IMG/VR virus record: IMGVR_UViG_2537561944_000018
Direction: 5' to 3' (one strand)
Source of the DNA: a virus
Lineage: Duplodnaviria; Heunggongvirae; Uroviricota; Caudoviricetes
Length of the DNA stretch: 23,498 bases
Numbering within the stretch: position 1 is the first letter of the stretch; the number at the start of each line of letters is the position of its first letter. The notes beneath the pieces were generated by a model. That model did not search any database, was not told where the DNA came from, and worked only from the letters and a program-made list of their open reading frames with translations. The position numbers and the translations under genes are program-made. This document shows, piece by piece, positions 4,209 through 21,679 of the stretch.

Positions 4209-4330
4209 TATAATTTTACTTTCATTAGCAATTGGTTAGCTCAATTATAGCCCCAAAAGGTAAATTATCATCAACACATAAGCAAAGGACTGACAGGTGT
4301 CGCCCCCCCACCAGCCGCCCATTCACCACA

Positions 4331-4356
4331 AATAAAAAGCCTTCAGGACTGAAGGC
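4331..4356 (-). terminator. Rho-independent terminator overlapping the stop of the 65-aa gene
   Basis: Minus RNA GCCUUCAG-UC-CUGAAGGC followed by UUUUUAUUU; the stop codon at 4343-4345 lies within the stem. Confidence 0.5.
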
Positions 4357-4540: not shown

Positions 4541-4663
4541 GTCTTTTTCCCTTTTTCGGTTAACGTGACACACCAATAACTCTTGTCGAAAAAGCCAGCA
4601 AGCTGAAAGAACGGTATTAATAACCACCAGCGAATTTATTGCGCTGCTGTATATTACGGACAC

Positions 4664-4685
4664 AAAAAAACCACCTTCCGGTGGC
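4664..4685 (-). terminator. tR'-like terminator downstream of the Q-like gene
   Basis: Minus RNA CCACC-GGAA-GGUGG followed by U7 (plus A7 at 4664-4670), about 100 nt downstream of the Q-like stop. Confidence 0.6.
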
Positions 4686-4781
4686 TTCCTTGTGCGAAAA
4701 AACTTGCATTTCGCCTCGCGATACAGCTTTGCGAAGCTTACAGGAATTCAAGCTGTTTCTGCGTAAAAAAGCAAGCTTTTT

Positions 4782-5324: not shown

Positions 5325-5680
5325 TCACTCTCAATTTTGTAAATCTTCACACCCAGCCGTCCACCAGATACTGGCTGACCGCGCACAATATTGATTTCAT
5401 CAAACTGCTCGTCATCAATGAGCACTTCCGCATGCGTCAGCGCATCCAGCGGTGCTTTCAGAATGTTGTCCAGGTCACGGCGGCGCTTATCCGGTGGCTC
5501 TGCAATCACCTTTATCGCCAGCCTTCCGGACAGGCTTAATTTCAGCCGCTGCTGGCGAACAATAAGCGCCACAGCCCGGCGATAACGCTTTCCCTCCTCC
5601 GAGATAAAATATGTGCTGCCACGGCGTCGCCAGTAAGTGTTCACCGTCGGCGGGTAAGGTAAAACCAAATCTATGAGCAT
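5321..5680 (-). CDS. rusA: Crossover junction endodeoxyribonuclease RusA, 119 aa
   Basis: PYPPTVNTYWRRRG ... RRRDLDN ... GGRL motifs typical of RusA; ATG at 5680 with AGAGGTGA upstream. Confidence 0.9.
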   Translation of the reverse strand: MLIDLVLPYPPTVNTYWRRRGSTYFISEEGKRYRRAVALIVRQQRLKLSLSGRLAIKVIAEPPDKRRRDLDNILKAPLDALTHAEVLIDDEQFDEINIVRGQPVSGGRLGVKIYKIESE

Positions 5681-5692
5681 CAGTCACCTCTT

Positions 5693-6739
5693 TTACCCAA
5701 GCACGCCAGTTGCAAAGGCGTGATCAAGAAAACGAAAAATTAAATCAACCTGAGAACCATGCTTTTCTTCGAACGCCAGCGGATCCGCATGAAGCTCGTT
5801 GTGATGCTCCCGACACAGCGGTAGCGTGAAAATATCGTGAGATTTTGTCCCCATTCCCCCCTGACCATGACCAATCAGGTGATGCGGATCGTCAGCAGGC
5901 TTACCACAACACGCACACGGCTGTGTCTTCACCCAGTGCGTGTATTTCTCGTTAACCCAGCGGCGACGTTTAGGTCGTTTCATGAAAGATTCCGGAGACT
6001 CAGGATCAACGGCAATGCTGACCACCGTCTTTTCCTGTGGCGGTTTTTGCTGGTGAGCGTGAGGCAGCGGCGCAAGATTTTTTGTGCGCTGCTTCAGTAT
6101 GCTGGTGGCGGTCTGCTCTCCCGGTACGATGTCGCTTTCACGGTACATTGAGCGGATTTTTTCCGCACGCAACCCCAGCGAACGACGTAATACCGCTTCC
6201 GGTAGCGCGTCCGCCACCTGATTGCGGACCGCCCACCAGGATAATTCAGCCAGAGATAATTCCCGTTCCTGTGCACCACTTATTGCGTGACGTATGACGT
6301 CAATCATCCAGGCTGTCAGATTTTGTTGAGCAAGCTGCCCGAGTGATTCGGATGTCTGGTCGCGCAGCTGGTTGTCGCAGTGCCAGCACAACACCATTGC
6401 GCCGGTACCATAACGGTGAATGACGGTTTCGCTGTGATGATAATCGCCGTGTGGCCACTGGCAGGATTTAATATGGCGCAACAGCCAGTCAGACAATGCA
6501 CCAGCACCACCAGCAGCACGAATCACCCGTGCGTTACTGAAAAACGGCAGCAATGTTTTGTCTTCCACTAGCGGCTGGCGAACGGCAGGAACAACCCCGG
6601 ACGGCAGATTACGCATGCTTTTCGGTTCCGGCTCCACCAGTACCCGGGTATTGTGGAATACCGGCATGGATTCACGACCCGGCTTAACGATCACCAGCCC
6701 GAGTTCCGGTACCAGAACAGGTCGAAGTAATACCCGCAC
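5693..6739 (-). CDS. DUF968 (YdfU-like) protein with C-terminal HNH-like Cys/His motif, 348 aa
   Basis: GTG start at 6739 one nt after the upstream TAA and preceded by GGAGG; C-terminal CACCGKPADDPHHLIGH...CREHHNELH. Confidence 0.8.
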   Translation of the reverse strand: MRVLLRPVLVPELGLVIVKPGRESMPVFHNTRVLVEPEPKSMRNLPSGVVPAVRQPLVEDKTLLPFFSNARVIRAAGGAGALSDWLLRHIKSCQWPHGDYHHSETVIHRYGTGAMVLCWHCDNQLRDQTSESLGQLAQQNLTAWMIDVIRHAISGAQERELSLAELSWWAVRNQVADALPEAVLRRSLGLRAEKIRSMYRESDIVPGEQTATSILKQRTKNLAPLPHAHQQKPPQEKTVVSIAVDPESPESFMKRPKRRRWVNEKYTHWVKTQPCACCGKPADDPHHLIGHGQGGMGTKSHDIFTLPLCREHHNELHADPLAFEEKHGSQVDLIFRFLDHAFATGVLG

Positions 6740-6740
6740 G

Positions 6741-7013
6741 TTACCTCCAGATGCGTTGCTGGAATGTGCGGGACGGACGCGGCGGGCGTTCGGAATAAAG
6801 GAGCCTGACGTAGATTATCCAGTGACGGTAGTCGAGGCTAAGGGCTTTCTTAAACTCATACCCACGTCTGCGGTAGTTATGAATCAGCCATTCGGCCTGT
6901 TCTTCAGTGCAGGGATCGTGCTGATACCAGTCATATTTGAATGTGTGAGAACACCGCCCTTGCCTGCTGGCAGGGGCGATATCAGAATTGTGATGTTTGG
7001 TATTGTGCGCCAT
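6741..7013 (-). CDS. Hypothetical protein (about 90 aa from ATG 7013)
   Basis: Stop TAA 6743-6741 abuts the DUF968 GTG, and the DUF968 SD lies in its 3' end; own start signals are weak. Confidence 0.45.
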   Translation of the reverse strand: MAHNTKHHNSDIAPASRQGRCSHTFKYDWYQHDPCTEEQAEWLIHNYRRRGYEFKKALSLDYRHWIIYVRLLYSERPPRPSRTFQQRIWR

Positions 7014-7085
7014 CGGTTTTCTCTGCTGGCGCAGCAGGTGCCAGTTGTTCAAGCTGGCGTGCGGCAATATTGTCTCTGATTTCTG

Positions 7086-7113
7086 TTGTCGTCAACAGGC
7101 AACGTGCTATCAT
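7086..7113 (+). promoter_or_regulatory. Candidate sigma70 promoter for the parDE-like operon
   Basis: TTGTCG (7086-7091), 16-bp spacer, TATCAT (7108-7113); SD GTGAGG at 7137-7142 precedes the ATG. Confidence 0.35.
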
Positions 7114-7148
7114 CGAATGGTGTTCTATCCTACTCCGTGAGGTTTACC

Positions 7149-7406
7149 ATGCGTACAACCCAACAATTCAGCATTACATTAACTAACGAAATGGCTGACA
7201 TGGTGCGCGCCCGTGTGGCTTCCGGTGCCTATGCTTCAGAAAGCGAGGTCATTCGTGAAGGGCTTCGCGCACTGAATGAGCGCGATAAAGCAATCGAAGC
7301 GTGGTTAACGCATTCAGCCGCCCCCTCTCTTGATTCTATCCGCGAAAATCCAAACAACGGACGCTCCATTTCACAGGTTCGCGCCGCGATTCGATCCGGG
7401 AAGTAA
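7149..7406 (+). CDS. parD: ParD/CopG-type RHH antitoxin, 85 aa
   Basis: ATG at 7149 with GTGAGG 6 nt upstream; ...ASESEVIREGLRALNERDKAIEAWL typical of ParD-like antitoxins. Confidence 0.75.
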   Translation: MRTTQQFSITLTNEMADMVRARVASGAYASESEVIREGLRALNERDKAIEAWLTHSAAPSLDSIRENPNNGRSISQVRAAIRSGK

Positions 7407-7411
7407 TCTGC

Positions 7412-7711
7412 ATGACATATGAAGTCATCATTACTCCTGAGGCCGAACAACAAATAATCAACCTGCACAGGTATATAACGGAGAAAGCAGGGAACGTCAT
7501 TGCTGACAATTATGCCAATGCGCTTCTTGATTATCTTGATGGGTTTTCTACATTCCCGCATCGGGGCAATAAACGCGATGATATTCGCCAGGGGATGCGG
7601 GTAACTCATTTCCGCCACAGAACGATTATTGCTTTTGCCGTTGATAGCAGAAAAGTCTTTATTGTCGGTATCTATCATGGTGGGCAAAGTTATGAAACCG
7701 ATTTCTTATAA
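7412..7711 (+). CDS. parE: ParE/RelE-superfamily toxin, 99 aa
   Basis: Starts 5 nt after the antitoxin stop; RelE/ParE fold signature (...RQGMRVTHFRHRTIIAFAVDSRKVFIVGIYHGGQSYE). Confidence 0.8.
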   Translation: MTYEVIITPEAEQQIINLHRYITEKAGNVIADNYANALLDYLDGFSTFPHRGNKRDDIRQGMRVTHFRHRTIIAFAVDSRKVFIVGIYHGGQSYETDFL

Positions 7712-7794
7712 ACTTTTACCCACATCATTCCGGTGTTAGAATTAACCGTCCGCCCCCTCTCTTACTGGCGGATTCGTAGGCTATATAAATCAAA

Positions 7795-7828
7795 GATCCC
7801 GGCTCATGTTTATGTCGGGATCTTTTTT
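7795..7828. terminator. Bidirectional terminator between convergent parDE and the minus-strand operon
   Basis: GATCCCG (7795-7801) / CGGGATC (7816-7822), 14-nt loop, T6 on plus (7823-7828); U-rich stretch on the minus side. Confidence 0.55.
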
Positions 7829-7835
7829 CGGCGAT

Positions 7836-7919
7836 TTATCCCCAGCGGCAAATCGAATACACCACCAGCGCCACCGCCATCGCAATTCCTACCGTTGTGA
7901 ATGCTTCAGGCCAGGTCAT
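7836..7919 (-). CDS. 27-aa hydrophobic peptide, coupled to the upstream gene
   Basis: ATG 7919-7917 overlaps the upstream TGA (ATGA); GGAGG 10 nt upstream; [27 protein letters not shown]; stop TAA 7838-7836 just before the terminator. Below the ORF-track cutoff. Confidence 0.4.
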
Positions 7920-8260
7920 CGTAAAATATCCTCCACGCTTATCAGTCCGTTCCGCTCCAGATAACTCATCGCCTTATCCGGTAATTTGCAGTCTGGCTTC
8001 GCTTTCCTCAGTTGCCAGGTTAACTGCTTTACCAGCATGGTTAACTCATCGACCAGACGCTGATATCCCACTGGTTTGTATTCATGCAATTTACCGGCTG
8101 GCTCTGCTGCCAGCGATACCAGTGCGATTTCCAGAACAGCAATATCCATCTTATATGTGCGGATGATGTCATGGTCGATTGTGCCCGGTATGCACAGTCT
8201 CTGTGTTTCAATAGTCTCCTCTGCGTGAGCTATTAACTGCTCTCTGGTAAAAGTCGTCAT
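7916..8260 (-). CDS. Hypothetical protein, 114 aa
   Basis: ATG at 8260 overlaps the HNH gene stop (ATGA); no family recognised. Confidence 0.6.
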
Positions 8261-8622
8261 GCCGTAGCCCCTTCTTGATATTTTTCAAACCAGAACACAA
8301 CTGGGTCAGATTTCATTTCAACCAATCCCATACGAACCAGCGCTTTGCCTTTCCCGGACGCAAGGAATTCACGACGACCATCACTGATAATTCGCCGATA
8401 ATCTTCCAGACTACTGCAATGCTTGTGCAGATTGCATGGGTGGCATGCCGGAACCATGTTGGATATATCGTCACGTTCCTGGTGAAGCATATTTCCATCA
8501 AAACGAATGACCGGTTTTACATGGTCTGCATGCCACTTTTCGCCAAGTTCGCAGCCGCAATAAGCACAGCGACCGCCGAACTTCATGCGCAGCTCTGCAC
8601 GTTGTTTTTTCGTCAGTGCCAT
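8257..8622 (-). CDS. HNH endonuclease, 121 aa
   Basis: Internal ATG at 8622 with AAGGA upstream; CAYCGCEL...HADHVKPV...CHPCN HNH motif. Confidence 0.8.
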
Positions 8623-8623
8623 A

Positions 8624-8842
8624 TCAGCTTTCCTTATACGGATTAATTTTATTGTGCAGTGTGCTGAACGACGCCCACACCACGTCGTTATACAATTCAA
8701 TAACTGGCTCAATTATTTTCACGATAAACCAGACCAGTAATAGCGGGGGTATCGGTATCATCAACACGATAAATATAATGAGAAACAAAAATTCTGTCGC
8801 TCTACTTTTTCTCGGATATTCTTTTCTGAATAATGTAGTCAT
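8624..8842 (-). CDS. Small membrane protein, 72 aa
   Basis: ATG at 8842; central hydrophobic stretch FLFLIIFIVLMIPIPPLLLVWFIVKII; stop TGA 1 nt before the HNH ATG. Confidence 0.5.
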   Translation of the reverse strand: MTTLFRKEYPRKSRATEFLFLIIFIVLMIPIPPLLLVWFIVKIIEPVIELYNDVVWASFSTLHNKINPYKES

Positions 8843-8847
8843 TTCTT

Positions 8848-8872
8848 ACCGCCCTTTCAGGCGGCCTCCTGA
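8848..8872 (-). promoter_or_regulatory. SD-hairpin element, copy 1 (structured ribosome-binding site)
   Basis: Minus RNA UCAGGAGG-CCGCCU-GAAA-GGGCGG, 6 nt before the AUG at 8842; 24/25 identical to 9920-9944. Confidence 0.5.
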
Positions 8873-8929
8873 TGTTTTGAGGGTGCAGAAATCCCTCCGG
8901 TTAAGGATTAAATTTTTAACTAAATTTAA

Positions 8930-9565
8930 TTATTCAGGCGCGATAAGCTGTTCCGCACAATCCAGCAATGCTTCTGTCGCTTCCTTAAGCGTTACTGTAT
9001 CGCTATCATCCAGTCCTGCAACTTTTTCGTACCTGACAAACGCCGCGCAAAGCTCGTTAAACAACCCCGCCCGTACTTCAGCCAGGAAAGCGTCGGTGGC
9101 CGGAGTTTCAGGAATCCGTCTCCTCATCCGTTCTATTGCATGATTGAACCCGAAATCTTCAGCAAGAGATACGTCATCCATATTGTCATTGTCGTCCTCA
9201 ATATCCCGTGGTTCTGGAATTGCAGACTTTATTACCGCATTCTCCGCCGCCAGCGCCACAAGATTAGCTTTCAGCTCTGCAATTCGTTTGTTTTGGGCTT
9301 CCCGTTCATCCAGTAGTGCCAGCGCAACATTTGGATTAAAAGCAGCAATAAATTCAGCGTTTGCATAAGCCTGAACATCTGTTTCAACCAGGCAGTTAAC
9401 ATGACATTCTGCAATTACGCCACCGGGCTCTCCTTTCCATTTTTGACAAACAAAAACTCCTGTTATATTCCCATGCTGATTGCCCGATGTATGCCCTACG
9501 ATGTAGCATCCTTTAGTTGCTTTCTCTGCTGCTTCACGCAGCGCCTGATAGTCAATCTCGCTCAT
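8930..9565 (-). CDS. Ead/Ea22-like protein, 211 aa
   Basis: N-terminal MSEIDYQALREAAEKATKG characteristic of Ea22-like proteins as recalled; ATG overlaps the upstream stop (ATGA). Confidence 0.75.
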   Translation of the reverse strand: MSEIDYQALREAAEKATKGCYIVGHTSGNQHGNITGVFVCQKWKGEPGGVIAECHVNCLVETDVQAYANAEFIAAFNPNVALALLDEREAQNKRIAELKANLVALAAENAVIKSAIPEPRDIEDDNDNMDDVSLAEDFGFNHAIERMRRRIPETPATDAFLAEVRAGLFNELCAAFVRYEKVAGLDDSDTVTLKEATEALLDCAEQLIAPE

Positions 9566-9738
9566 TCATCGCCCCACTCATCACAATATGCTTCGACCGG
9601 ATTTTTTCCTGCTTCATAATCATCACGCCATGCTTCAGCATCAGCAGCACTGCCACCACGTAACTCTGCATATTCCATTAACAGTTCATGCCATTCTTCA
9701 AAACTGACGCTGTATTTAGTTGAACCAAAATCAGCCAT
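9562..9738 (-). CDS. Hypothetical acidic small protein, 58 aa
   Basis: ATG at 9738 (4 nt before the upstream TGA), stop overlaps the Ea22-like ATG; MADFGSTKYSVSFEEWHELLMEYAELRGG.... Below the ORF-track cutoff. Confidence 0.5.
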   Translation of the reverse strand: MADFGSTKYSVSFEEWHELLMEYAELRGGSAADAEAWRDDYEAGKNPVEAYCDEWGDE

Positions 9739-9913
9739 TTTGTTCTTCCTCTTCGTCTTTTATTTCGTGATATGAATAATTGCAGTAGTTAAAGAAAATA
9801 TCTTTTGCTTCGTCATGTATTTCATCAGGCGTCGCATCATCATCCACTTCGAATTCATCCTCGAAATCTCCACCGGCTATTCCCGTTTCAATAATTATTT
9901 TAAACTTTCGCAT
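9731..9913 (-). CDS. Hypothetical acidic small protein, 60 aa
   Basis: ATG at 9913 preceded by SD-hairpin copy 2; coupled to the downstream ORF. Confidence 0.55.
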   Translation of the reverse strand: MRKFKIIIETGIAGGDFEDEFEVDDDATPDEIHDEAKDIFFNYCNYSYHEIKDEEEEQNG

Positions 9914-9919
9914 TTAACT

Positions 9920-9944
9920 ACCGCCCTTTCGGGCGGCCTCCTGA
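9920..9944 (-). promoter_or_regulatory. SD-hairpin element, copy 2
   Basis: Minus RNA UCAGGAGG-CCGCCC-GAAA-GGGCGG, 7 nt before the AUG at 9913; the loop-closing pair is C-G here versus U-G in copy 1. Confidence 0.5.
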
Positions 9945-9946
9945 CA

Positions 9947-10159
9947 TTAATCGTTGTGGTAACTCATGGCTTCATTTGCAACATCAACCGGATCAACCTC
10001 CCACCAGCAATAATTTGGTGCGTTTCCTTCAGGTGTCCACGGTTCTAATTCATTTTTTGCCGCATTCTCATCGCCAGTAATTTTAAAAATCTGCTCAGAG
10101 AATTTTCTTGCCCACTCGTTATATTTTTCCGCATTAATGGCTTTCTGTGTATTTAACAT
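9947..10159 (-). CDS. Hypothetical small protein, 70 aa
   Basis: ATG at 10159 with GGAGG 7 nt upstream. Confidence 0.55.
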   Translation of the reverse strand: MLNTQKAINAEKYNEWARKFSEQIFKITGDENAAKNELEPWTPEGNAPNYCWWEVDPVDVANEAMSYHND

Positions 10160-10209
10160 AAATATACCTCCAGTTCAGGATTAGATTTTATTTACAGCGC
10201 TAAATTTAT

Positions 10210-10566
10210 TTATTCAGTTCTGGATTTTGTCGCCCTGCGTATCCGCGCTTTCGCGTTACGTTCAATCTGAATTAACTTTTCTATATTTTTCCGCCTTTCC
10301 TGTTCCTCCTGGCGCAATAGCCTTACATCATCTGCCAGTCTGGTTTCTCTTTTCGCCACAGAGAGCATCCAGTCAAACGGCTCCACAACCGCACCGCAGA
10401 TTTTACAGCGGACCTGGCGCTCTTTTTCGTCAACCCGAACAGAGGCGTGATGACAATATGGTCTTTCCGATGGCTCATAAAGAAAATTAACCTGATTACG
10501 AGGGTCATCCTCTTTTACCGGAAATAAAACGATATTGCTTAACTCATCCTCTGGTTTTATTTCCAT
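10210..10566 (-). CDS. Hypothetical protein with Cys/His zinc-binding motif, 118 aa
   Basis: ATG at 10566 preceded by AAGGAGAGGAG; CHHASVRV...CKICG motif; start overlaps the upstream Ea22-like 3' end. Confidence 0.6.
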   Translation of the reverse strand: MEIKPEDELSNIVLFPVKEDDPRNQVNFLYEPSERPYCHHASVRVDEKERQVRCKICGAVVEPFDWMLSVAKRETRLADDVRLLRQEEQERRKNIEKLIQIERNAKARIRRATKSRTE

Positions 10567-11005
10567 GCTCCTCTCCTTTGATGCGAATGCCAGCGACGCG
10601 TAATGCGTGTTCTAGGTCAATCAGGTAAAGCCAACTGCCATTTTCTTTAGGTATCATGACATGTCGCTCATCTGCATTTATCGGGTGTCCATATCGAAGG
10701 TCGTAGCGAGTCGGTAATTGAACTTCCCGCGCATCCAGTTCAGCAATACGCTTGCTCCCATCAGAGATAACGCCTTCGTAATACTCACGCTGCTCGTTGA
10801 GTTGTGATTTTGCTTCTTCCAGTCCATCCAGCAAACCAGCGATAATATCCGCTTCCCGATGACGGATATGACGCTTAAACGCAGCAAGAGCCGCATCACA
10901 ATCCCGTTCAGCATTTGGGCTGTCCGGGGTAGCCTGATACCACGCCAGCGTCGACTGATAGTTTTGTGCTGCCTCACGAAGCGCCTCATAGTTAACCTCT
11001 CTCAT
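10544..11005 (-). CDS. Ead/Ea22-like protein (paralog), 153 aa
   Basis: N-terminal MREVNYEALREAAQ; AGGAGG 7 nt upstream of ATG 11005; ATGA overlap with the DUF4406 stop. Confidence 0.7.
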   Translation of the reverse strand: MREVNYEALREAAQNYQSTLAWYQATPDSPNAERDCDAALAAFKRHIRHREADIIAGLLDGLEEAKSQLNEQREYYEGVISDGSKRIAELDAREVQLPTRYDLRYGHPINADERHVMIPKENGSWLYLIDLEHALRVAGIRIKGEEHGNKTRG

Positions 11006-11298
11006 CGAGCCACCTCCTGATAAATCACCGCATGCCCCAGTTTCTCCGCCAGTGCCAGCTCTGCCTTAGCGCCCGCTGACCGCTGCCAGCCATTCAGCAT
11101 GTAAATCGCATCCACACAACGAATCATTGCCATGCAAATATCCATGTAGTGCGGCTGTGTCAGCCCGTCCGGAAGTACTGCCGGAGTTAAGACGGTATGC
11201 CCTTCCCGTTTCAGTTCCTCTTCCGCCTTGTGAAACGCCTCACGGTTGAAATTTTCATATCCCGTCATTGGACCGGCAATATAAACTCTCACCCTCAC
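11002..11298 (-). CDS. DUF4406-like protein (nucleoside deoxyribosyltransferase-like fold), 98 aa
   Basis: GTG at 11298 preceded by AGGAGG with 7-nt spacing and overlapping the upstream TGA (GTGA); VYIAGPMTGY motif. Confidence 0.65.
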   Translation of the reverse strand: MRVRVYIAGPMTGYENFNREAFHKAEEELKREGHTVLTPAVLPDGLTQPHYMDICMAMIRCVDAIYMLNGWQRSAGAKAELALAEKLGHAVIYQEVAR

Positions 11299-11687
11299 TC
11301 CATCACCTCCTGAAAGTTTCCCCGATAGAACGCCAGCACACGCTGCATAACTTCGCTCTGGCGGCACTCACGACAAATTATGTTCTGCCGTCTGTTGTAA
11401 CGACGTATTTCTCCGTCAGGTAACTTTCGAATCAGTGTCGGGTCAGCAGCCTTCTCCGGTGTCTTACGCCATACGCGATACGCCTGCTCTGATGGAAATA
11501 CCCCGCAACCAGAGAGCCAGACATCACCACTGGCCGCAAGCGCACCAGATAAACGACGAATAGCGGTCTTACTGACACCCGTTTTATCTGCCAGTTGTCG
11601 AAAAGTTTCTCGTCCGCTCAGGCGCACGAATTCCACAATGCGCGCCTTCACTTCTTCCCGCTCTTCTGGTGTAAATTCTTTTGCCAT
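11295..11687 (-). CDS. Hypothetical HTH-containing protein, 130 aa
   Basis: ATG at 11687 with GGAGG 5 nt upstream; HTH-like TFRQLADKTGVSKTAIRRL and a C-terminal CRECRQ. Confidence 0.6.
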   Translation of the reverse strand: MAKEFTPEEREEVKARIVEFVRLSGRETFRQLADKTGVSKTAIRRLSGALAASGDVWLSGCGVFPSEQAYRVWRKTPEKAADPTLIRKLPDGEIRRYNRRQNIICRECRQSEVMQRVLAFYRGNFQEVME

Positions 11688-12024
11688 AAGCGCCTCCGGC
11701 AATCACTTTTCCGATACAACACGGCGGGAAGAATCAGTAATCTGTCGAACAATATCCCGGTGCTTGTTCAGCTCCCGCAGCGCGGCGCAGACTCGCTCCC
11801 ACTTCTGAACCTGACCTTTTGCCCGGCGCAGCTCGCGGTTAGCCACATGCAGCGATGGTAAAATCAGACCATCCGGATGTTTTCTGGTGAACGACGGCTG
11901 TGACTGCACTGTGACCGCCACACTTTCCGTTTTTATTTCTTCCTGTGTTTCTGCTTCCCGTGAGGTAGCCTGAGTTTAACGGACACTCCTTCCTGAAATA
12001 GAATGGCATCAGAAGGAGCTAATA

Positions 12025-12327
12025 ATGAGCAGAAAAACCCAACGTTACTCTAAAGAGTTCAAAGCCGAAGCTGTCAGAACGGGTCTCGAAAATCAACTTT
12101 CGATCAGTGAAGGCGCTTCCCGATTATCTCTTCCTGAAGGCACTTTAGGACAATGGGTTACCGCCGCCAGAAAAGGGCTCGGTACTCCTGGTTCCCGCAC
12201 GGTGGCTGAACTGGAATCTGAAATTCTGCAACTGCGTAAGGCGTTAAATGAAGCTCGCCTTGAGCGAGATATATTAAAAAAAGCAACAGCGTATTTTGCA
12301 CAGGAGTCGCTGAAAAATACGCGTTAA
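12025..12327 (+). CDS. IS3-family transposase OrfA (HTH), 100 aa
   Basis: ATG at 12025; MSRKTQRYSKEFKAEAVR... typical IS3-family OrfA with a leucine-zipper-like C-terminus. Confidence 0.8.
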   Translation: MSRKTQRYSKEFKAEAVRTGLENQLSISEGASRLSLPEGTLGQWVTAARKGLGTPGSRTVAELESEILQLRKALNEARLERDILKKATAYFAQESLKNTR

Positions 12328-13181
12328 TCGAACAATGGCGACAACAATTTCCCATTGAAGCGATGTGTCAGGTATTTGGTGTATCCAGGAGCGGTTATTA
12401 CAACTGGGTACAGCATGAACCCTCAGACAGAAAACAAAGTGATGAGCGGCTAAAACTGGAGATTAAGGTGGCACATATCCGCACTCGCGAAACATATGGA
12501 ACCCGGCGGCTCCAGACGGAGCTGGCAGAGAATGGCATCATCGTTGGTCGTGACCGACTGGCACGTCTTCGTAAGGAGCTAAGGCTACGCTGTAAGCAGA
12601 AACGCAAGTTCAGAGCGACTACGAACTCGAACCACAATCTGCCAGTTGCGCCAAATCTGCTGAACCAGACGTTCGCTCCTACAGCACCAAATCAGGTCTG
12701 GGTGGCGGACCTGACGTATGTTGCCACACAGGAGGGATGGTTGTACCTCGCTGGCATCAAAGATGTTTATACGTGCGAAATTGTCGGCTACGCCATGGGA
12801 GAGCGCATGACAAAAGAGCTGACAGGTAAAGCTCTGTTTATGGCGCTCAGGAGCCAGCGCCCACCTGCCGGGCTAATCCACCACTCTGATCGAGGTTCAC
12901 AGTACTGCGCATACGATTACCGGGTCATACAGGAGCAGTTTGGTCTGAAAACATCAATGTCGCGTAAAGGTAACTGTTACGACAACGCTCCGATGGAAAG
13001 CTTCTGGGGAACGCTGAAAAATGAGAGCCTGAGCCACTATCGTTTTAATAACCGGGATGAAGCCATCTCAGTAATACGGGAATACATTGAGATTTTCTAC
13101 AATCGTCAGCGTCGTCACTCTCGTCTGGGGAATATCTCCCCGGCAGCCTTCAGGGAAAAATATCATCAGATGGCTGCTTAA
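12264..13181 (+). CDS. IS3-family transposase OrfB (DDE/rve integrase domain), made as an OrfAB fusion by -1 frameshift
   Basis: The -1 frame is open from 12264; slippery A AAA AAA G at 12276-12283 inside orfA; DDE motifs (...HHSDRGSQY...YDNAPMES...). Confidence 0.75.
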   Translation, partial: ARYIKKSNSVFCTGVAEKYALIEQWRQQFPIEAMCQVFGVSRSGYYNWVQHEPSDRKQSDERLKLEIKVAHIRTRETYGTRRLQTELAENGIIVGRDRLARLRKELRLRCKQKRKFRATTNSNHNLPVAPNLLNQTFAPTAPNQVWVADLTYVATQEGWLYLAGIKDVYTCEIVGYAMGERMTKELTGKALFMALRSQRPPAGLIHHSDRGSQYCAYDYRVIQEQFGLKTSMSRKGNCYDNAPMESFWGTLKNESLSHYRFNNRDEAISVIREYIEIFYNRQRRHSRLGNISPAAFREKYHQMAA

Positions 13182-13728
13182 AAAAAGAACAAATGGTAGT
13201 GTCCGCTATTGCCAGTACACCTCACCGAACTGGTAACGCAACACCTGCTGGCTGAGGAAAGGCTTTACCATCGGTTTCCGCTACGGATGCAGCTTCCGGC
13301 TCTGCCGGTAAATCAGCGCCCGGTATGCAGTAACGAAATTTACCGCCCTGATTCACGCGAATCAGACGCCCTTTGCTGATTACCATGGCCAGCGATGAAT
13401 TCGCCCGGCGGGAGGTAATCCCGAACATCAGTGCCAGCTCATCCGCCGTTTGTGGGCCATGTTGTTCAATCGCCTCAGTCAGCATTTGCGCTGTCACTTT
13501 CGGTACCGGTGACACCGGTTCACTTTCACCAGCCTGAATCAGCCACCACATCGACCCCTTGTTATCCGCTTCACCGCGGCGCTTCAGTTTCCACAGTTCG
13601 TTGACCGCATCTTCACGGCTGATTCCAAGGCGGGCCGCCACTACCTGTGAAGAGGCTCTTTTCAGTGCTTTCAGTGCGTCAAATACGGTTTCCATTAAAA
13701 TTTCCTCCGACAAAATCGTTTCTCAGAT

Positions 13729-14391
13729 TCAAATAAAACCAGCTGCCTTCCGGCGTTCGTATTCCTGTTTCAGCCGCTCAATTGGCGTTGGCCCTTGCGG
13801 GTGTTTCGCCCCTTCCAGTTGTCGTCGCACTGGCGGAACACTCATCCCGTTACCAACATGCTTTGCCCATTTCGTCAGTTGCCGTTCTGCAAGTAGTTTT
13901 AACTCACCCTGCGTCATCTGGCGCTCAATCCCTCTGGTACGCATTTCGAGGCAGATGTGGTACAGCACAGGCTGTGGCCACGGGTATTTATCACTCCCGT
14001 CGTATCGCCAGGATTCATTGCGCCAGCGCCGGTACTCTTCCATCACGGCATCCACCGTAAGACCAAATGGATTTGCCCCACTCTCCGAAATCAGCGCAAC
14101 AAACTCAGCCAGGTCCGGGGGCCACGTTTCACCCGCCCGGCAGCGGTCCATGCACTGACGGCAGACCAGACGGATTTGCTGTTCAGTCATCGCACCAATC
14201 TGGGCAATCCAGAGCTTCGAAGGTGCGGCCCCGTTCTTCTGAGTCCAGCGGTTCGAATACACCTCCCCCATAAGCTCCCACAGCTTCCAGGCCGTTTCCG
14301 TTGCTGATAAATCCGTTTTCACGTTCCCACTGTTCGCGTGCTGCCCGGATTTCCTGAACTGCCCGTGATGCCGTGCCACCTGATGCTGCAT
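13729..14391 (-). CDS. Lambda P-like replication protein (helicase loader), 220 aa if started at 14391
   Basis: C-terminal two-thirds resemble lambda P as recalled; ATG 14391 has AGGGGG 6 nt upstream but overlaps the O-like gene by 209 nt; in-frame ATGs also at 14271 and 14190. Confidence 0.6.
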   Translation of the reverse strand: MQHQVARHHGQFRKSGQHANSGNVKTDLSATETAWKLWELMGEVYSNRWTQKNGAAPSKLWIAQIGAMTEQQIRLVCRQCMDRCRAGETWPPDLAEFVALISESGANPFGLTVDAVMEEYRRWRNESWRYDGSDKYPWPQPVLYHICLEMRTRGIERQMTQGELKLLAERQLTKWAKHVGNGMSVPPVRRQLEGAKHPQGPTPIERLKQEYERRKAAGFI

Positions 14392-15193
14392 GGCTTACCC
14401 CCTTGCTGACTGGTTTTACCTGTGCCCTGACGTGCTGCACGTGGCGGGCAAATTTCTGCTCCCACTGAACCTGCGTGAAAACCTTCCCCTCCGCCATCCA
14501 GTAATCCCGGAATGCGGCAAGCTCAGCAGGTGTAAATTCCGGCTCAGGCAGAGCCATACCCCACACTGCTGCCCGTTGTCGAAAATCCGGCGACGGCTGC
14601 CAGACAGTAGTCATCGAAAATTTCCCGATCGGTTCGCTCAGGCCGTCCAGGTATTCAGGTTCGGCTGTCTGCAACGGCGCACCATGCGACTCACTGGTCG
14701 GAATACTCTCGCGTTCACGCACGTTATGTGTGGGGTTTAATTCTTTTAGATCTGTATCTTTATTAGTTGCTTTTGTGTTTGCGTCATGTTCAAACACAAC
14801 ACCAACATTTGTTTGAACACCTGTTAAATCTCTCTCTTGTTTTGTTTGAACATATGCTTCCTTTCTGCTTCTTCTGGCCTGAACAGATGCTTTTCCGGCG
14901 GCTGATTTTTTGGTCAATTTTTCCCTGACTGATGCCAGATCTTCCTCAATCCGAAGATGCACCCATTCATCGCTGTTATCGCAAAAAAACTCCCGCAAGG
15001 ATGGTTCCACATCAGCCCATCGCTCGTTAGTCAGACGGGAAATTTTTGCCAGCCTGTTTTTAGGTATTGGTTTCCCTGTTTGCCAGTAATTGAACATCAG
15101 CAACAAATACGCACCGTGCTCCTCTGCGGACAAATGCATGGTGTCAGCCAGGTAATCAGCTATGTACAGTTGCATGTATGGTAATGCGGCCAT
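14183..15193 (-). CDS. Replication initiator, DUF1376 N-terminal domain (O-like / YdaU-like), 336 aa
   Basis: ATG at 15193 with GAGG 5 nt upstream; MAALPYMQLYIADYLADTMHLSAEEHGAYLLL DUF1376-type N-terminus. The track ORF starts at TTG 15247. Confidence 0.7.
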   Translation of the reverse strand: MAALPYMQLYIADYLADTMHLSAEEHGAYLLLMFNYWQTGKPIPKNRLAKISRLTNERWADVEPSLREFFCDNSDEWVHLRIEEDLASVREKLTKKSAAGKASVQARRSRKEAYVQTKQERDLTGVQTNVGVVFEHDANTKATNKDTDLKELNPTHNVRERESIPTSESHGAPLQTAEPEYLDGLSEPIGKFSMTTVWQPSPDFRQRAAVWGMALPEPEFTPAELAAFRDYWMAEGKVFTQVQWEQKFARHVQHVRAQVKPVSKGVSHAASGGTASRAVQEIRAAREQWERENGFISNGNGLEAVGAYGGGVFEPLDSEERGRTFEALDCPDWCDD

Positions 15194-15279
15194 AATTGCC
15201 TCATCTTGTGACGAACCATCCTCTGGTGATATTCTGTGATTCCCCAATCAACAGAATCAGCAGGGGTCTGGCATAAATA

Positions 15280-15717
15280 TCAATGCACCACAACAGACTC
15301 GCCGGATGACCCGCCGTCGCTGAAATACGCTTTCCGGTAAACTGCCTGGACTGCATCATCATGCGCATCAATTGCCGTGCTCAACGCTTCCTGGGCCGCC
15401 AGTAATGCACGGCGCTCAACAGTGTCAAAAATACTGAGGTGATAACGCAGTTCACGCGGAAGAACAGTCAGGATAGCTGGAATTAGTGCCTGAATTTTTT
15501 CAACAGCATCAGGCGTATCCTTTTCAAGCCAGCGAAAAATATTTTGTATGTTCAATCCAATACCCTCTGTCGTAGAGGTGTCATGCATTGGTGGATAAGT
15601 CATTTCAAGCTCAAAATATGCTGTCGCTATATCATCAGCGATTTTTTTGCGCCCTACCCTCGGATAAAGCAGCCACGCATTCATCGCCATGCGGATGTGC
15701 TCATGCTTGATTTTCAT
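15280..15717 (-). CDS. YdaT-like protein (cII position), 145 aa
   Basis: ATG at 15717 overlaps the Cro-like stop (ATGA); C-terminal ...ERRALLAAQEALSTAIDAHDDAVQAVYRKA resembles Rac YdaT as recalled. Confidence 0.65.
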   Translation of the reverse strand: MKIKHEHIRMAMNAWLLYPRVGRKKIADDIATAYFELEMTYPPMHDTSTTEGIGLNIQNIFRWLEKDTPDAVEKIQALIPAILTVLPRELRYHLSIFDTVERRALLAAQEALSTAIDAHDDAVQAVYRKAYFSDGGSSGESVVVH

Positions 15718-15974
15718 GAATCAACTCCCGCCGCTGCTTGTGCGTTAGCCTGATACTCAACAGGTAAACCATCGGTTGGATTAGGGTATTTATCAGGGCG
15801 CAATTCATGCGGAGTTACTCCCCAGTCAAGCGCCTCACATGCTGGTATAACCTCCTCCGCTGGCACTCGTTTTTTAAACCACCCACTTATGGTTTGCGGT
15901 GTTTTACCAAGACGACGCCCTAATTCTGATTGGCTCATTATTGACAGGATTTTCACTTGAGTACTTTTTTGCAT
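15714..15974 (-). CDS. Cro-like HTH regulator (YdaS/DicC-type), 86 aa
   Basis: ATG at 15974 with GGAGGG 4 nt upstream; HTH SQSELGRRLGKTPQTISGWFKKR; divergent from the repressor gene. Confidence 0.75.
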   Translation of the reverse strand: MQKSTQVKILSIMSQSELGRRLGKTPQTISGWFKKRVPAEEVIPACEALDWGVTPHELRPDKYPNPTDGLPVEYQANAQAAAGVDS

Positions 15975-16100
15975 GTTTCCCTCCGAACTTTACGATGACA
16001 CCGATAATTACAAATTTAAATTTAAATTTCAACTTCTATTTGTAATGCCACTTATCAATTTTTTCTGTAGGATCGCGGAACTAGTTTACGAGGGGTGGTG
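15975..16100. promoter_or_regulatory. Divergent promoter/operator region between the Cro-like and repressor genes
   Basis: Contains AATTACAAATTTAA (16006-16019) and its inverted partner ATTTGTAA (16038-16045) flanking a TTTAAATTTAAATTT repeat; candidate -35/-10 elements on both strands. Confidence 0.5.
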
Positions 16101-16493
16101 ATGATCTTTGTAAAACGCCTTCAGCAGGTGTTGCAGGAATTGAATATAAACCAGTCAGAGCTGGGAAGACGTCTTGGTGTAAAACCCCAATCCGTGCAAG
16201 GTTGGTTGAAAGGCGTGATGCCAAGAATGGATAAACTGGAAAAATTAGCAGAGCTCTCACAACATCCCGTCCATTGGTTCTTTATGGAAGAAGAAACTCT
16301 CGGCGATAAAATGGCTGTATCCAGTAATGACAACCAACCGCAACTTACAGAACAACAACGAAAAATCATATCGCTTTTAGATGAGTTACCTCAAAGCGAC
16401 GCAGAGCAGATCATTCGTGATATGGAGCAAAAACGCGATTTCTATAAACGGAAACTTGAAGAGTTACTGCGGCAGAAAAACAAAACTGCCTGA
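16101..16493 (+). CDS. DicA-like prophage repressor (HTH-XRE), 130 aa
   Basis: ATG at 16101 with AGGGG 5 nt upstream; N-terminal HTH LNINQSELGRRLGVKPQSVQGWLKG and a DicA-like C-terminus (...LPQSDAEQ...YKRKLEELL) as recalled. Confidence 0.8.
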   Translation: MIFVKRLQQVLQELNINQSELGRRLGVKPQSVQGWLKGVMPRMDKLEKLAELSQHPVHWFFMEEETLGDKMAVSSNDNQPQLTEQQRKIISLLDELPQSDAEQIIRDMEQKRDFYKRKLEELLRQKNKTA

Positions 16494-16539
16494 TGCATTC
16501 CTTTTCTGGAACGAGCATCAGGCAAATGACTAGCAGATT

Positions 16540-16898
16540 TTATAATCCAACCAGGCTTTCCAGGGGGATACCAAATTGATTATGAAGACGGCGAATCATT
16601 GGTAACGTAAGGCTTCTGGTACCATTCAACACCTCATAAACCCGATTTTTTTTCCCAATTGCGGGTTCCAAATCTTTCACAGTCAGCCCCTGCTGTTCCA
16701 TGCGAAATCTTATAGCTTCAATTGGGGATGGTGGCTCAATGGGATAATGTTTTTTTCATATTCCTCTATTAGCAAACACATCACCTCAAAAAAATCCCCC
16801 TCAGGCGTGTCAATTTCGGGCTCATTGTCGAACATGGGTTCAACAGCACGCAACGCGGCTTCATAATCTTGCTCTGTACGAATAGGTTTGATGTTCAT
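16540..16898 (-). pseudogene. higA: HigA-like antitoxin, frameshifted at an A7 tract
   Basis: The N-terminal 62-codon ORF (16898-16710) stops shortly after an A7 run (plus T7 16750-16756); the -1 frame continues through an HTH-XRE domain to TAA 16542-16540. One extra A would give a 120-aa protein. Confidence 0.65.
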
Positions 16899-16900
16899 GC

Positions 16901-17203
16901 TTACTCCAGTTCGATGGTATCAGCATCAATAGCATCGTATTCCTTGTGGTTTCCGATGAATTTAACAAATACCCATCCTCGCTGATACGCAATTGCAACA
17001 ATTAAACGGTAATGATTACCTTTTATGTTGAATACCACGCGCCGGTTTTTCAATATACTGGCCGTTCGGTATTGTGCCTTAATGTCTGCTGGGCTTTTCC
17101 AGTCAGCTTTTGCCGCCTCATCCACCCATGCCCTTAGCGGTTGTTCTGCATCAGGATTCTCCGCCCAAAAATCCCTGAGTGTTTTAACTGAGATAATCTT
17201 CAT
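16901..17203 (-). CDS. higB: HigB-family toxin (RelE/ParE superfamily), 100 aa
   Basis: ATG at 17203; ...VVFNIKGNHYRLIVAIAYQRGWVFVKFIGNHKEYD matches the E. coli HigB motif VFNVGGNELRVV...THKEYD as recalled; toxin-first order, stop 2 nt before the higA ATG. Confidence 0.75.
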   Translation of the reverse strand: MKIISVKTLRDFWAENPDAEQPLRAWVDEAAKADWKSPADIKAQYRTASILKNRRVVFNIKGNHYRLIVAIAYQRGWVFVKFIGNHKEYDAIDADTIELE

Positions 17204-17246
17204 AACTGTATAGTAGTCCCATTTTGGGACTGATGCAACAGCCCGC

Positions 17247-17300
17247 AATTACAAATTTAATAATAAACATGTTGACCAGTTAAATTTTAATTTGTAAATT
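17247..17300. promoter_or_regulatory. Second operator-like site with candidate rightward promoter (PdicB-like) upstream of higB
   Basis: Exact 14-mer AATTACAAATTTAA (17247-17260) plus inverted ATTTGTAA (17290-17297); plus-strand TTGACC (17272-17277), 17-bp spacer, TAAATT (17295-17300). Confidence 0.45.
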
Positions 17301-17616
17301 GTATCCATAAACCCACCCCGCCCCACAGAACGCAGGGCAATACTTCGAGTTACCCGGCAGTGGTCAGGGGTTAAGTAGCCAGCCTGAGGCGTATGAACAT
17401 GACGGCGGGGATTACGTTTAACTATGCAGCAGGTTTTTTGTTCCGCTACCCCGGCGTTAAGGGGAAACAGAGGATTTCTCAGTGGGCGAAGTCAAACATC
17501 AGAATGGAAGGCATCCAGGGATCAGCAAAGAAACAGCGATGGCGCTTTATATTGATATCAGCGCCATTGCCGGACAGGTAAGAATTATCAGAGCGGTAAC
17601 TAAGCGGTATGCGCCT

Positions 17617-17817
17617 TTACTTCAGAAAGTCTCTGGTGAGTGCACCGAAGATATTGTCAACGATTTCGTCATCAAACTGCGAGGACTCATCTTCAGTTAC
17701 AAGGTGACCACAATTTTTGCAGATGGCTCCCGCGAAACTGTCAGAGCCATGCGGTTTAAAGGATGTGTCAAAGACTTCGCCACCACATACTGGGCAAGAA
17801 AACTTGATTGTATTCAT
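17617..17817 (-). CDS. Small zinc-ribbon protein (CxxC-N20-CxxC), 66 aa
   Basis: ATG at 17817 with GAGAGGAA 7 nt upstream; CPVCGG...CKNCGH. It lies antisense to a 118-codon plus-strand ORF (17482-17838), so the call is uncertain. Confidence 0.45.
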   Translation of the reverse strand: MNTIKFSCPVCGGEVFDTSFKPHGSDSFAGAICKNCGHLVTEDESSQFDDEIVDNIFGALTRDFLK

Positions 17818-17909
17818 AACCAATTTCCTCTCGAGTAACAGACCCCTCAGAGGATACCACCTCGCCTGACGTGGTTAAAAGCAGGCAGCGCTAACCACAA
17901 GGAGCCGAC

Positions 17910-18128
17910 ATGCAGAAACGAGAACCCGTCATCATCGCGCCAGACTATACCGATGATGAACTTTATGAGTGGATGCACCAGAAAATTAAGGCAGCGCAGG
18001 ACCTGAAATGGGCCAATGAAGCCAGGGCTAAGCAGGCTGAAAATCTGTCCGCTCTGGAGCAGGATATCACCAATCTGGAAAAAGCAGCGGCATTAAGCAT
18101 TGCCAGAATGATTACATACCCGCGTTAA
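17910..18128 (+). CDS. YdfC-like small protein, 72 aa (assigned by position and length only)
   Basis: ATG at 17910 with AAGGAG 5 nt upstream; sits immediately upstream of dicF as ydfC does in Qin. Confidence 0.65.
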   Translation: MQKREPVIIAPDYTDDELYEWMHQKIKAAQDLKWANEARAKQAENLSALEQDITNLEKAAALSIARMITYPR

Positions 18129-18468
18129 TAGCTAACCAACGAAGCTAAGGTTGGTAATTAAGGAGTTCTCCACGGGTGAGGTGGAGTGCGTGCGCCGGAC
18201 ACGGGTGAGCATCCGGCACTGACAGTTTACTGAAAGGATATTCCCTGAAAAGTCAGACCATAACGCGAAAGCGCACGGCGAGGTAGCTGGTTCATAGATA
18301 GCCTGTCGTTAAATTTTCGTCGACCGTGCGCTTCCGGTTGTGGCAATCCGCGAAATGGCGCGGCGGTAAGTATGGCGGGGTTATTCCTTCCCCAGTTGAG
18401 GACACCGGGTTGTCAGGTTGACCATACGCTTAAGTGACAACCCCGCTGCAACGCCCTCTGTTATCAAT

Positions 18469-18526
18469 TTTCTGGTGACGTTTGGCGGTATCAGTTTTAC
18501 TCCGTGGCTGCTCTGCCGCCCTTTTT
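18469..18526 (+). ncRNA. dicF: DicF small regulatory RNA with its U-tail terminator
   Basis: TTTCTGGTGACGTTTGGCGGTATCAGTTTTACTCCGTGGCTGCTCTGCCGCCC followed by T5; matches the DicF sequence as recalled, with one apparent A-to-G difference; lies just upstream of the dicB homologue. Confidence 0.8.
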
Positions 18527-18695
18527 AAAGTGAATTTTGTGATGCGGTGAATGCGGCTCAGCGCACGCGGAACAGTTAAAACCAAAAACAGTGTTATGGG
18601 TGGATTCTCTGTATCCGGCGTTAATTGTTAACTGGTTAACGTCACCTGGAGGCACCAGGCACCGCATCACAAAATTCATTGTTGAGGACGCGATA

Positions 18696-18884
18696 ATGGA
18701 AACGTTATTACCAAACGTTAATACGTCTGAAGGTTGTTTTGATATTGGTGTTCTGCTCAGTAACCGGGAGTTTACTGAAGATGCCATTAATATGAGGAAA
18801 TATGAGCCTTATCTGCTCAATGATAATTCCATACTTTCCCGAATTGCTCTTCTTGAACTTGGTATTTTCGGAGAACGTCAATGA
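18696..18884 (+). CDS. dicB: DicB-like cell-division inhibitor, 62 aa
   Basis: ATG at 18696 with GAGGA 7 nt upstream; METLLPNVNTSEGCFDIGV... matches the DicB N-terminus as recalled; same 62-aa length. Confidence 0.8.
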   Translation: METLLPNVNTSEGCFDIGVLLSNREFTEDAINMRKYEPYLLNDNSILSRIALLELGIFGERQ

Positions 18885-19069
18885 CTTCAGCATTTGCACT
18901 GATGATGACGGTTTTTCTTATAACGGGTGAATCACAGAATGTGATTACCGGAATTTATGCCAGTAAAGAATCCTGCCTCCAGGCAAGAGACGAGCAAAAA
19001 ATTTCTGGTGAATGCCTCCCGGTAAAAAAAGTATCGCTGTACCTGAATAACGAAACACCGGCTGGATAA
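18881..19069 (+). CDS. YdfD-like small lysis-associated membrane protein, 62 aa
   Basis: ATG overlaps the dicB stop (ATGA); N-terminal hydrophobic helix MTSAFALMMTVFLITG and ...EQKISGECLPVKKV resemble YdfD as recalled. Confidence 0.7.
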   Translation: MTSAFALMMTVFLITGESQNVITGIYASKESCLQARDEQKISGECLPVKKVSLYLNNETPAG

Positions 19070-19163
19070 CCCTCCAGCCATATTAACACCATACCAACGG
19101 ATTAAAAATGCCAGCAATGGCAGGGATTCGTTCACCCTGAAATCTGTAATGAGGTAAAACAAA

Positions 19164-21083
19164 ATGAGTAAAGTCTTTATTTGCGCCGCCATTCCGGACG
19201 AACAGGCAATAAAGGAAGAAGGTGCAGTCGCTGTAGCCACTGCCATTGAAGCCGGTGATGAACGTCGCGCCCGCGCAAAATTTCACTGGCAATTCCTGGA
19301 ACATTATCCGGCTGCTCAGGACTGCGCTTATAAATTTCTTGTTTGCGAGGATAAACCCGGTATTCCCCGCCCTGCCCTCGATTCCTGGGATGCTGAATAT
19401 ATGCAGGAAAACCGCTGGGATGAGGAGTCTGCTTCCTTTGTCCCGGTTGAGACTGAATCAGATCCGATAAACGTCACTTTTGACAAGCTGGCCCCTGAAG
19501 TACAGAACGCTGTCATGGTTAAGTTCGACACATGTGAAAACATCACCGTTGATATGGTGATTAGCGCGCAGGAACTGTTGCAGGAAGACATGGCAACATT
19601 CGACGGACATATCGTTGAAGCGTTGATGAAAATGCCAGAAGTTAACGCCATGTATCCGGAGCTTAAGCTGCATGCCATCGGGTGGGTTAAGCATAAATGT
19701 AAGCCAGGTGCCAAATGGCCCGAAATTCAGGCAGAGATGCGCATCTGGAAAAAACGTCGCGAAGGTGAACGCAAGGAAACCGGAAAATACACGTCTGTTG
19801 TTGATCTCGCCCGCGCCAGAGCCAATCAACAGCACACTGAAAATTCAACAGGAAAAATCAGCCCGGTCATTGCTGCCATTCATCGCGAATACAAGCAGAC
19901 ATGGAAAACACTGGATGACGAACTGGCCTACGCTCTCTGGCCTGGTGATGTGGATGCCGGAAACATTGACGGCAGCATCCATCGCTGGGCAAAAAATGAA
20001 GTTATCGACAACGACCGCGAAGACTGGAAGCGTATCTCGGCATCAATGCGCAAACAGCCTGATGCCCTTCGCTACGACCGCCAGACTATTTTTGGCCTTG
20101 TCCGTGAACGTCCGATCGACATTCACAAAGACCCTGTGGCACTGAACAAATACATTACTGAATACCTGACTACAAAGGGCGTGTTTGAAGATGAAGGAAC
20201 AAATCAGAGCGCAACTGATACTCTCTCGTCGCCAGTACCAGAAACTGATGCAGTGGAAACGGCAATTCCGGACAACGAAAAAACCGAATGCAAAGTGGAA
20301 GTCGAACCATCTGTAGAGCGTGAGGGGCCGTTCTACTTCCTCTTCACCGACAAGGATGGCGAAAAATACGGTCGCGCAAACAAACTTTCTGGTCTGGATA
20401 AGGCACTGGCTGCCGGGGCTACTGAAATCACGAAAGAAGAATATCTTGCCCGCAAAAACGGAACATACACGGACTTACCGCAAAATGTGGATACCGCTGA
20501 AGATTCCGTACAACCGGAGCCGGTAAAAGTTACCGCTGACGAAGTAAACAAAATTATGCAGGCAGCCAATATCAGCCAGCCTGACGCCGATAAATTGCTT
20601 GCTGCATCACGTGGTGAATTTGTTGAAGGGATTAGCGATCCGAATGATCCGAAATGGGTGAAGGGGATTGAAACCTGCGATTCTGTGAACCAGAACCAGC
20701 AAGAATCGGAACAGAACGACCAGAAAACGGAACAAAACAGCCCAAATGCGCAACAAAACGAGCCAGAAACGAAACAGGAGCCGGAAAAAGCCTGCACCGC
20801 CTGCGGTCAGACCGGCGGCGGTAGCTGCCCTGATTGTGGTGCGGTGATAAGTGACGCAACATACCAGGAAATATTCGATGAAGAGAATCAGCCTGAAGTT
20901 CAGGAAAATGATCCGGAGGAAATGGAAGGCACTGCGCATCAGCACAAGGAGAACACTGGCGGCAATCAGCATCATGCCAGCGATAGTGAAACTGGCGAGG
21001 CGTCAGATCCCTTAATTAAGGCGAACGGTCATCATAATCTCACATCACCAGCAGAGCGGGATTCATCTGATGATCGACCTTGA
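19164..21083 (+). CDS. Large YdfE-like protein of unknown function, 639 aa, acidic Q/E/N-rich C-terminus with a Cys4 motif
   Basis: ATG at 19164 with GAGGT upstream; CTACGQTGGGSCPDCG near the C-terminus; occupies the ydfE position after ydfD; no enzymatic motif recognised. Confidence 0.7.
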   Translation: MSKVFICAAIPDEQAIKEEGAVAVATAIEAGDERRARAKFHWQFLEHYPAAQDCAYKFLVCEDKPGIPRPALDSWDAEYMQENRWDEESASFVPVETESDPINVTFDKLAPEVQNAVMVKFDTCENITVDMVISAQELLQEDMATFDGHIVEALMKMPEVNAMYPELKLHAIGWVKHKCKPGAKWPEIQAEMRIWKKRREGERKETGKYTSVVDLARARANQQHTENSTGKISPVIAAIHREYKQTWKTLDDELAYALWPGDVDAGNIDGSIHRWAKNEVIDNDREDWKRISASMRKQPDALRYDRQTIFGLVRERPIDIHKDPVALNKYITEYLTTKGVFEDEGTNQSATDTLSSPVPETDAVETAIPDNEKTECKVEVEPSVEREGPFYFLFTDKDGEKYGRANKLSGLDKALAAGATEITKEEYLARKNGTYTDLPQNVDTAEDSVQPEPVKVTADEVNKIMQAANISQPDADKLLAASRGEFVEGISDPNDPKWVKGIETCDSVNQNQQESEQNDQKTEQNSPNAQQNEPETKQEPEKACTACGQTGGGSCPDCGAVISDATYQEIFDEENQPEVQENDPEEMEGTAHQHKENTGGNQHHASDSETGEASDPLIKANGHHNLTSPAERDSSDDRP

Positions 21084-21612: not shown

Positions 21613-21679
21613 TGTTCAACCCATATCGCCGCCCACCAGCTATAGTGGCGGCGGTCATGCTGTAAAGGCACGTGACCAC

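Follow-up and report, generated by a model that had tools for sequence, protein, structure and literature searches.

Insertions of IS600 and other elements of the IS3 family account for abundant strain-to-strain variation in STEC and Shigella, and insertion sequences commonly land in defective prophages. These elements have been amplified in STEC O26, O121 and related serotypes, where they give rise to insertion polymorphisms, some of them in the early regions of prophages (PMC9397093; PMC10042803), and the expansion of IS600 in Shigella is well documented (PMC7373316). In STEC O121:H19, an IS600 copy lies within lacZ, and its excision by IEE is reported to restore lactose utilisation (PMC9397093). 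An O26 Stx1 phage with IS600 inserted into its early region has also been described (PMC10042803).

The stretch of DNA analysed here (23,498 nucleotides; ‘the window’) is the whole of contig AFAI02000009.1 from the draft assembly GCA_000194725.2. Its sequence places the region in a Rac-like lambdoid prophage of an O26:H11-type E. coli, at the end of the early-right operon where the replication genes lie. Read along the minus strand, its genes follow the order HTH regulators (dicA/dicC-like), YdaS/YdaT-like, DUF1376-DnaT (O-like), lambda P-like, DUF1627, DUF977, DUF4406 and Ea22-like. The DUF1627 gene is split by an insertion sequence, and we conclude that this arrangement almost certainly arose by a single simple transposition, in which a complete 1264-bp IS600 entered codon 157 of a 241-codon gene and the trinucleotide CCG was duplicated.

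The element occupies positions 11961–13224 (plus strand), with first bases TGAGGTAGCC and last bases GTACACCTCA; the length and coordinates proposed in an initial annotation of this DNA hold in the sequence. That annotation had called the element ‘IS600-like’. It is IS600 itself, with 99.8% identity over positions 1–1264 to RefSeq copies annotated as ‘IS3-like element IS600 family transposase’. Near-identical copies annotated as IS600 are present in hundreds of E. coli genomes, and at least 80% of the element is found in 1750 records of the complete E. coli collection. The best listed matches (H1–H12) span exactly 1264 bp, with ends that coincide with the proposed ones. The IS600 copies in three other loci (L003, L004 and L008) have identical first and last bases in spite of unrelated flanks, and they carry 3-bp duplications of their own (CCC, GTG and AGT). 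Because these independent copies agree, the boundaries and the 3-bp duplication are properties of IS600 itself rather than chance features of this locus. The length of IS600 in ISfinder is 1264 bp; a literature search for a published length gave no usable value.

The transposase genes run along the plus strand, opposite to the target gene. The first, orfA (12025–12327; 100 aa), contains an HTH_Tnp_1 domain (PF01527, E = 1.6e-19). The second, orfB (12363–13181; 272 aa from its first ATG), contains HTH_21 and an rve integrase core of the DDE type (PF00665, E = 3.2e-26), and scores 334.7 bits against the NCBIfam model transpos_IS3 (cut-off 160). The Pfam domains matched by the transposase are PF01527, PF13276, PF00665, PF13683 and PF13333. 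The two genes are in the 0 and −1 frames, and a −1 shift anywhere in the run AAAAAAAG at 12276–12283 (plus strand) gives a single open OrfAB of 385 aa. From the sequence, we presume this slippery run to be the programmed frameshift site at which orfA would pass into orfB to give OrfAB; the RefSeq copies have the same 1157-nt joined CDS, annotated ‘programmed frameshift’.

Compared with every complete-genome copy, the IS600 in the window differs at two bases, G at 12083 and C at 12087, which amount to V20G in OrfA and one silent change; a 100%-identical IS600 was absent among the complete-genome copies listed. The four copies that were aligned base by base (L002–L004 and L008) have T and T at the equivalent positions, as does AFAI02000008.1, a 578-bp contig that redundantly covers window positions 11642–12219 in the same assembly. 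Because that contig contradicts them, the two bases are doubtful, and they may be assembly errors rather than a real variant.

The ends of the element have the form 5'-TG...CA-3' and carry imperfect terminal inverted repeats, in line with the initial annotation. The left repeat, IRL (11961–11987, plus strand; TGAGGTAGCCTGAGTTTAACGGACACT), pairs imperfectly with the right repeat, IRR (13198–13224, plus strand, ending in GTACACCTCA): 71% of positions are paired over approximately 27–28 nt, with 6 of 6 matches at the outer tips and 8 of 8 in an internal block, CGGACACT. The direct repeat CCG, which had likewise been proposed, is present at 11958–11960 and at 13225–13227. The left junction reads TTCTGCTTCCCG and then TGAGGTAGCC, and the right junction reads GTACACCTCA and then CCGAACTGGT. 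The chance of a 3-bp repeat by itself is 1/64; we regard this one as a real duplication because both flanks end on the same three bases in the uninterrupted reference, which has a single CCG.

The same comparison defines what happened at the site. In a pairwise BLAST alignment, window positions 1–11960 correspond to positions 301–12262 of the reference locus L008, and window positions 13225–23498 correspond to positions 12260–22538. The two flanks overlap on exactly three L008 bases, and otherwise nothing has been gained or lost. Since the flanks are contiguous in the reference apart from the 3 duplicated bp, one simple transposition accounts for the arrangement. An empty-site query of 1000 bp (500 bp of each flank, joined through a single CCG) was matched at 100% identity over its full length in at least 25 listed genomes, including O26:H11 str. 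11368 and other STEC, and at 99% or higher in 128 records among the 5,426 complete E. coli genomes. In these chromosomes the match covers genes annotated ‘DUF1627 domain-containing protein’ and ‘DUF977 family protein’. The flanking prophage DNA of the window differs by 0.06–0.12% from that of other strains. In the phage collection the relatives were only 78–85% identical, and no high-identity empty site was found there.

Joining positions 13695–13228 to 11960–11703 on the minus strand produces 726 nt without an internal stop (241 codons plus the stop codon), which confirms the earlier proposal that removal of the element restores a single frame of roughly 241 codons. An intact homologue of that frame exists: the reconstructed ORF is identical base for base (100% at the DNA level) to the CDS of WP_000450641.1 in E. 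coli O26:H11 str. 11368. The intact protein, a ‘DUF1627 domain-containing protein’ of 241 aa, is found in many other STEC genomes as well.

In the window, the 5' part of the split DUF1627/YdaW-like gene (13225–13695, minus strand) comprises codons 1–157, and the 3' part (11703–11957, minus strand) comprises codons 158–241 and the stop codon, corresponding to the remainder of a predicted linker and a long C-terminal helix. In gene calls the 3' part appears as a 72-aa fragment with a GTG start (11703–11921). On the minus strand the right-hand copy of the duplication reads CGG and still encodes Arg157; the next codon, TGA, consists of the last three bases of IRR and provides the stop codon of the truncated gene. 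The 5' fragment contains residues 1–157 with no foreign tail, and PF07789 is matched on this 157-aa product. Both neighbouring genes are intact. Immediately upstream lies the gene for a lambda P-like replication protein (13729–14190, minus strand; 153 aa, PF06992), and next downstream in the operon lies a DUF977 family gene (11295–11687, minus strand; 130 aa, PF06163, E = 2e-41). The name ‘LygF’ refers to this DUF977 neighbour; the papers found under that name deal with goose-type lysozyme.

The reconstructed protein matches the entire DUF1627 model (PF07789, model positions 1–155 of 155, residues 76–230) with 276.9 bits (cut-off 28.1), and matches phrog_630 over its full length (E = 1.3e-120). 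Its 2306 homologues are mostly 237–241 aa long (many of them 241 aa) and come mostly from E. coli or Shigella. Weak, sub-threshold similarities were seen to Ren-like exclusion proteins, MarR and AlkZ-like winged helices. A PDB sequence search with the protein returned no significant match, no NCBIfam model corresponded to it, and in the literature DUF1627 appears solely as a marker of synteny close to the PasA/PasC sRNAs.

With 44 close homologues as input, an AlphaFold2 model of the protein reached a mean pLDDT of 64.8. In this model, residues 4–40 form a three-helix bundle (with a wing region at pLDDT ~52–57), residues 69–123 form a canonical winged helix with the order H-H-H-beta-beta (pLDDT ~82–86), residues 131–190 form a disordered linker (pLDDT < 50) that contains the insertion point, and residues 193–240 form one long C-terminal helix. 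The Foldseek matches of the model were almost all winged-helix DNA-binding proteins at modest E values (7e-4 to 1e-2), and the longest alignments were with tandem-winged-helix proteins such as ScpB. The description of this protein in the initial annotation, as having ‘two winged-helix-like repeats’, is partly supported. As a structural guess for two HTH-type domains it is fair, since the model contains one clear winged helix and one HTH bundle, but a repeat at the level of sequence did not hold up: similarity between the two N-terminal segments was not significant (E = 0.88).

In the event that we propose, an IS600 transposase of the DDE type, made through −1 frameshifting between orfA and orfB, would have inserted the element into codon 157 of the DUF1627/YdaW-like gene with duplication of the 3 bp CCG, and the cut would fall in the predicted disordered linker. 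The 157-aa product would keep both predicted N-terminal domains of DNA-binding type and would lose the long C-terminal helix, which may serve in oligomerisation. The element, antisense to the operon, would add ~1.26 kb of untranslated RNA, and polarity from it would be expected to reduce transcription of the DUF977 gene and of genes further downstream. We infer that the antisense IS600 probably lowers transcription of the downstream early genes. A promoter and terminator scan of the region, in which counts were at or below the shuffled expectation, lends this polarity no support.

Several further features of the prophage were apparent. A ParD/ParE-type toxin-antitoxin pair lies at 7086–7711 (plus strand) in a nin-like region, according to the reference annotation, and together with HigBA it makes two toxin-antitoxin modules in one prophage early region. 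The higA-like antitoxin gene (16540–16899, minus strand) is frameshifted at a homopolymer near 16750–16756 (one base shorter, A7 in place of A8). Its product has 53 aa here versus 119 aa in sister assemblies and complete genomes, and the adjoining higB toxin gene is intact; the frameshift is either a draft sequencing error or a real loss of the antitoxin. Rfam matches above the gathering score comprised two sRNAs, DicF (75 bits) and STnc100 (104.7 bits), together with three tRNAs, to which the reference annotation assigns Arg, Arg and Ile; the match coordinates are 18470–18521 (plus strand), 2273–2445 (minus strand) and 3218–3466 (minus strand). DicF, STnc100 and tRNAs are typical cargo of such lambdoid prophages.

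A search of 5,426 complete E. coli genomes did not find the occupied site. At least one further draft does have it: GCA_002735005.1, from another project, encodes the exact 157-aa truncated product, on a contig that contains the right junction and 78 nt of IS600 with 0 mismatches. Because the insertion is missing from all of those complete genomes yet is present in another draft, we conclude that it is real, that a few isolates of one small sublineage share it, and that it is recent relative to the diversification of O26-type strains. Recency had already been proposed in the initial annotation, on the grounds that the frame is intact. The distribution bears out this conclusion but not the argument, because at a divergence of 0.06–0.12% fewer than one change is expected in 726 nt, and an intact frame is therefore a weak clock.

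A number of candidate occupied sites and fragment carriers were rejected. Twelve matches with 86% coverage (H56–H67) and one more (H68) carry IS600 elsewhere in paralogous prophages, and their DUF1627 gene is intact or damaged in another way. A match with 100% coverage of the window (H86) has an intact DUF1627 gene and an IS600 copy in tail gene J; its full coverage is an artefact, because separate pieces were joined. A contig from another assembly (L007; GCA_040205125.1, ABSYXI010000105.1) matched the 157-aa product only because it ends 2 nt past the insertion point; its sequence there is uninterrupted (...CGGGA). That break coincides with the point at which paralogous DUF1627 genes diverge, and the contig end is probably an assembly repeat boundary and no sign of an insertion. 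Four loci considered as carriers of the 72-aa fragment (L011–L013 and L015) lie on contigs that begin inside the gene and have a different DUF977 neighbour.

With regard to its effect, the insertion is most likely neutral and located in decaying prophage DNA, which is also the simplest reading. The prophage is probably defective because a second insertion sequence splits its integrase, and neutrality of the IS600 insertion is likely because the prophage was probably already crippled in this way. The second element, also of the IS3 family, begins at 22275 with TGAACCGCCCCGGGTTTCC and runs off the end of the contig (22275–23498); its own end may resemble that of IS629/IS1203. It contains an ALIL frameshift pseudoknot (23133–23248, minus strand; 115.7 bits). 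The gene that it splits encodes the tyrosine integrase of the prophage. The integrase is split likewise in strain 7_56_38A and many related genomes, whereas O26:H11 str. 11368 lacks the element at this position.

It is unlikely that the IS600 insertion was instead selected, with the truncated 157-aa protein or polar silencing benefiting the host (for example, by keeping the prophage locked down), and perhaps with reversal by IEE. Such a benefit would fit with the position of the cut in a disordered linker, which leaves both predicted DNA-binding domains intact and adds no foreign residues. It would also fit with the restoration of a gene by IEE-promoted excision of IS600 in STEC O121 (PMC9397093), and with the proposal that, in one O26 strain, Stx1 induction may have been lost through an IS600 insertion upstream of q (PMC10042803). 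The insertion is rare, however, with no occurrence among the complete genomes and a handful in drafts; the integrase is already split by another insertion sequence; and no independent insertion into this DUF1627 gene was seen, and where IS600 copies lie nearby in paralogous prophages, they sit in other genes. We give similarly little credence to the idea that the 157-aa double-HTH protein and polarity of the element alter prophage replication or late-gene control, with a reversible switch if iee-positive. Our preferred reading remains that of a neutral insertion, produced by one transposition into decaying prophage DNA.

Very improbable is an assembly artefact, in which an IS600 repeat consensus was misplaced in the contig and the gene is really intact. 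The draft assembly shows signs of noise: 8 positions differ between the window and the redundant 578-bp contig, and the higA-like gene carries the homopolymer-length frameshift described above. A misplaced repeat, however, would not yield an exact 3-bp target duplication, and both junctions recur: the left one is seen again in that second contig (AFAI02000008.1), and the right one is reproduced without mismatch in the independent assembly GCA_002735005.1.

We attach next to no probability to a joining of the flanks by recombination between two IS600 copies (through inversion, deletion or prophage–prophage exchange), for which a sister genome offers a precedent in an IS600 copy (L002) that lacks a matching duplication and lies between two unrelated truncated genes, because here CCG stands on both sides, the flanks are contiguous in the reference with only three of its bases duplicated and nothing else missing or added, and an annotated gene is rebuilt exactly. 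The L002 copy itself (positions 4002–5265; E. coli O26 str. RM10386) is flanked by CTG on the left and AAG on the right, and its truncated neighbours are a TerB-family gene and an eae-like gene, an arrangement suggestive of deletion or recombination mediated by the element within a paralogous prophage.

The transposition reading places this locus among insertions that are already familiar. The element has the same termini, orfA/orfB arrangement, A7G slippery run and 3-bp duplication as the known IS600 of Shigella and E. coli. The target has a homologue in phage Rac-SA53, noted there as ‘ydaW’, which, as here, follows the replication genes and precedes a DUF977 gene. As a member of the DUF1627/phrog_630 family, the reconstructed protein spans the whole Pfam model, whereas the copy in the window is interrupted and represents a natural knockout or truncation allele of a widespread, uncharacterised DUF1627/YdaW family. 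The insertion site could help to recognise a small O26-type sublineage and has little importance beyond strain typing; the insertion is an ordinary strain-level mutation of an already known kind and not a new type of feature. In the lacZ insertion of STEC O121:H19 (match H8), the same element also interrupts a gene in a STEC-type genome; that case has a lactose phenotype, whereas the target in the window is an uncharacterised prophage gene.
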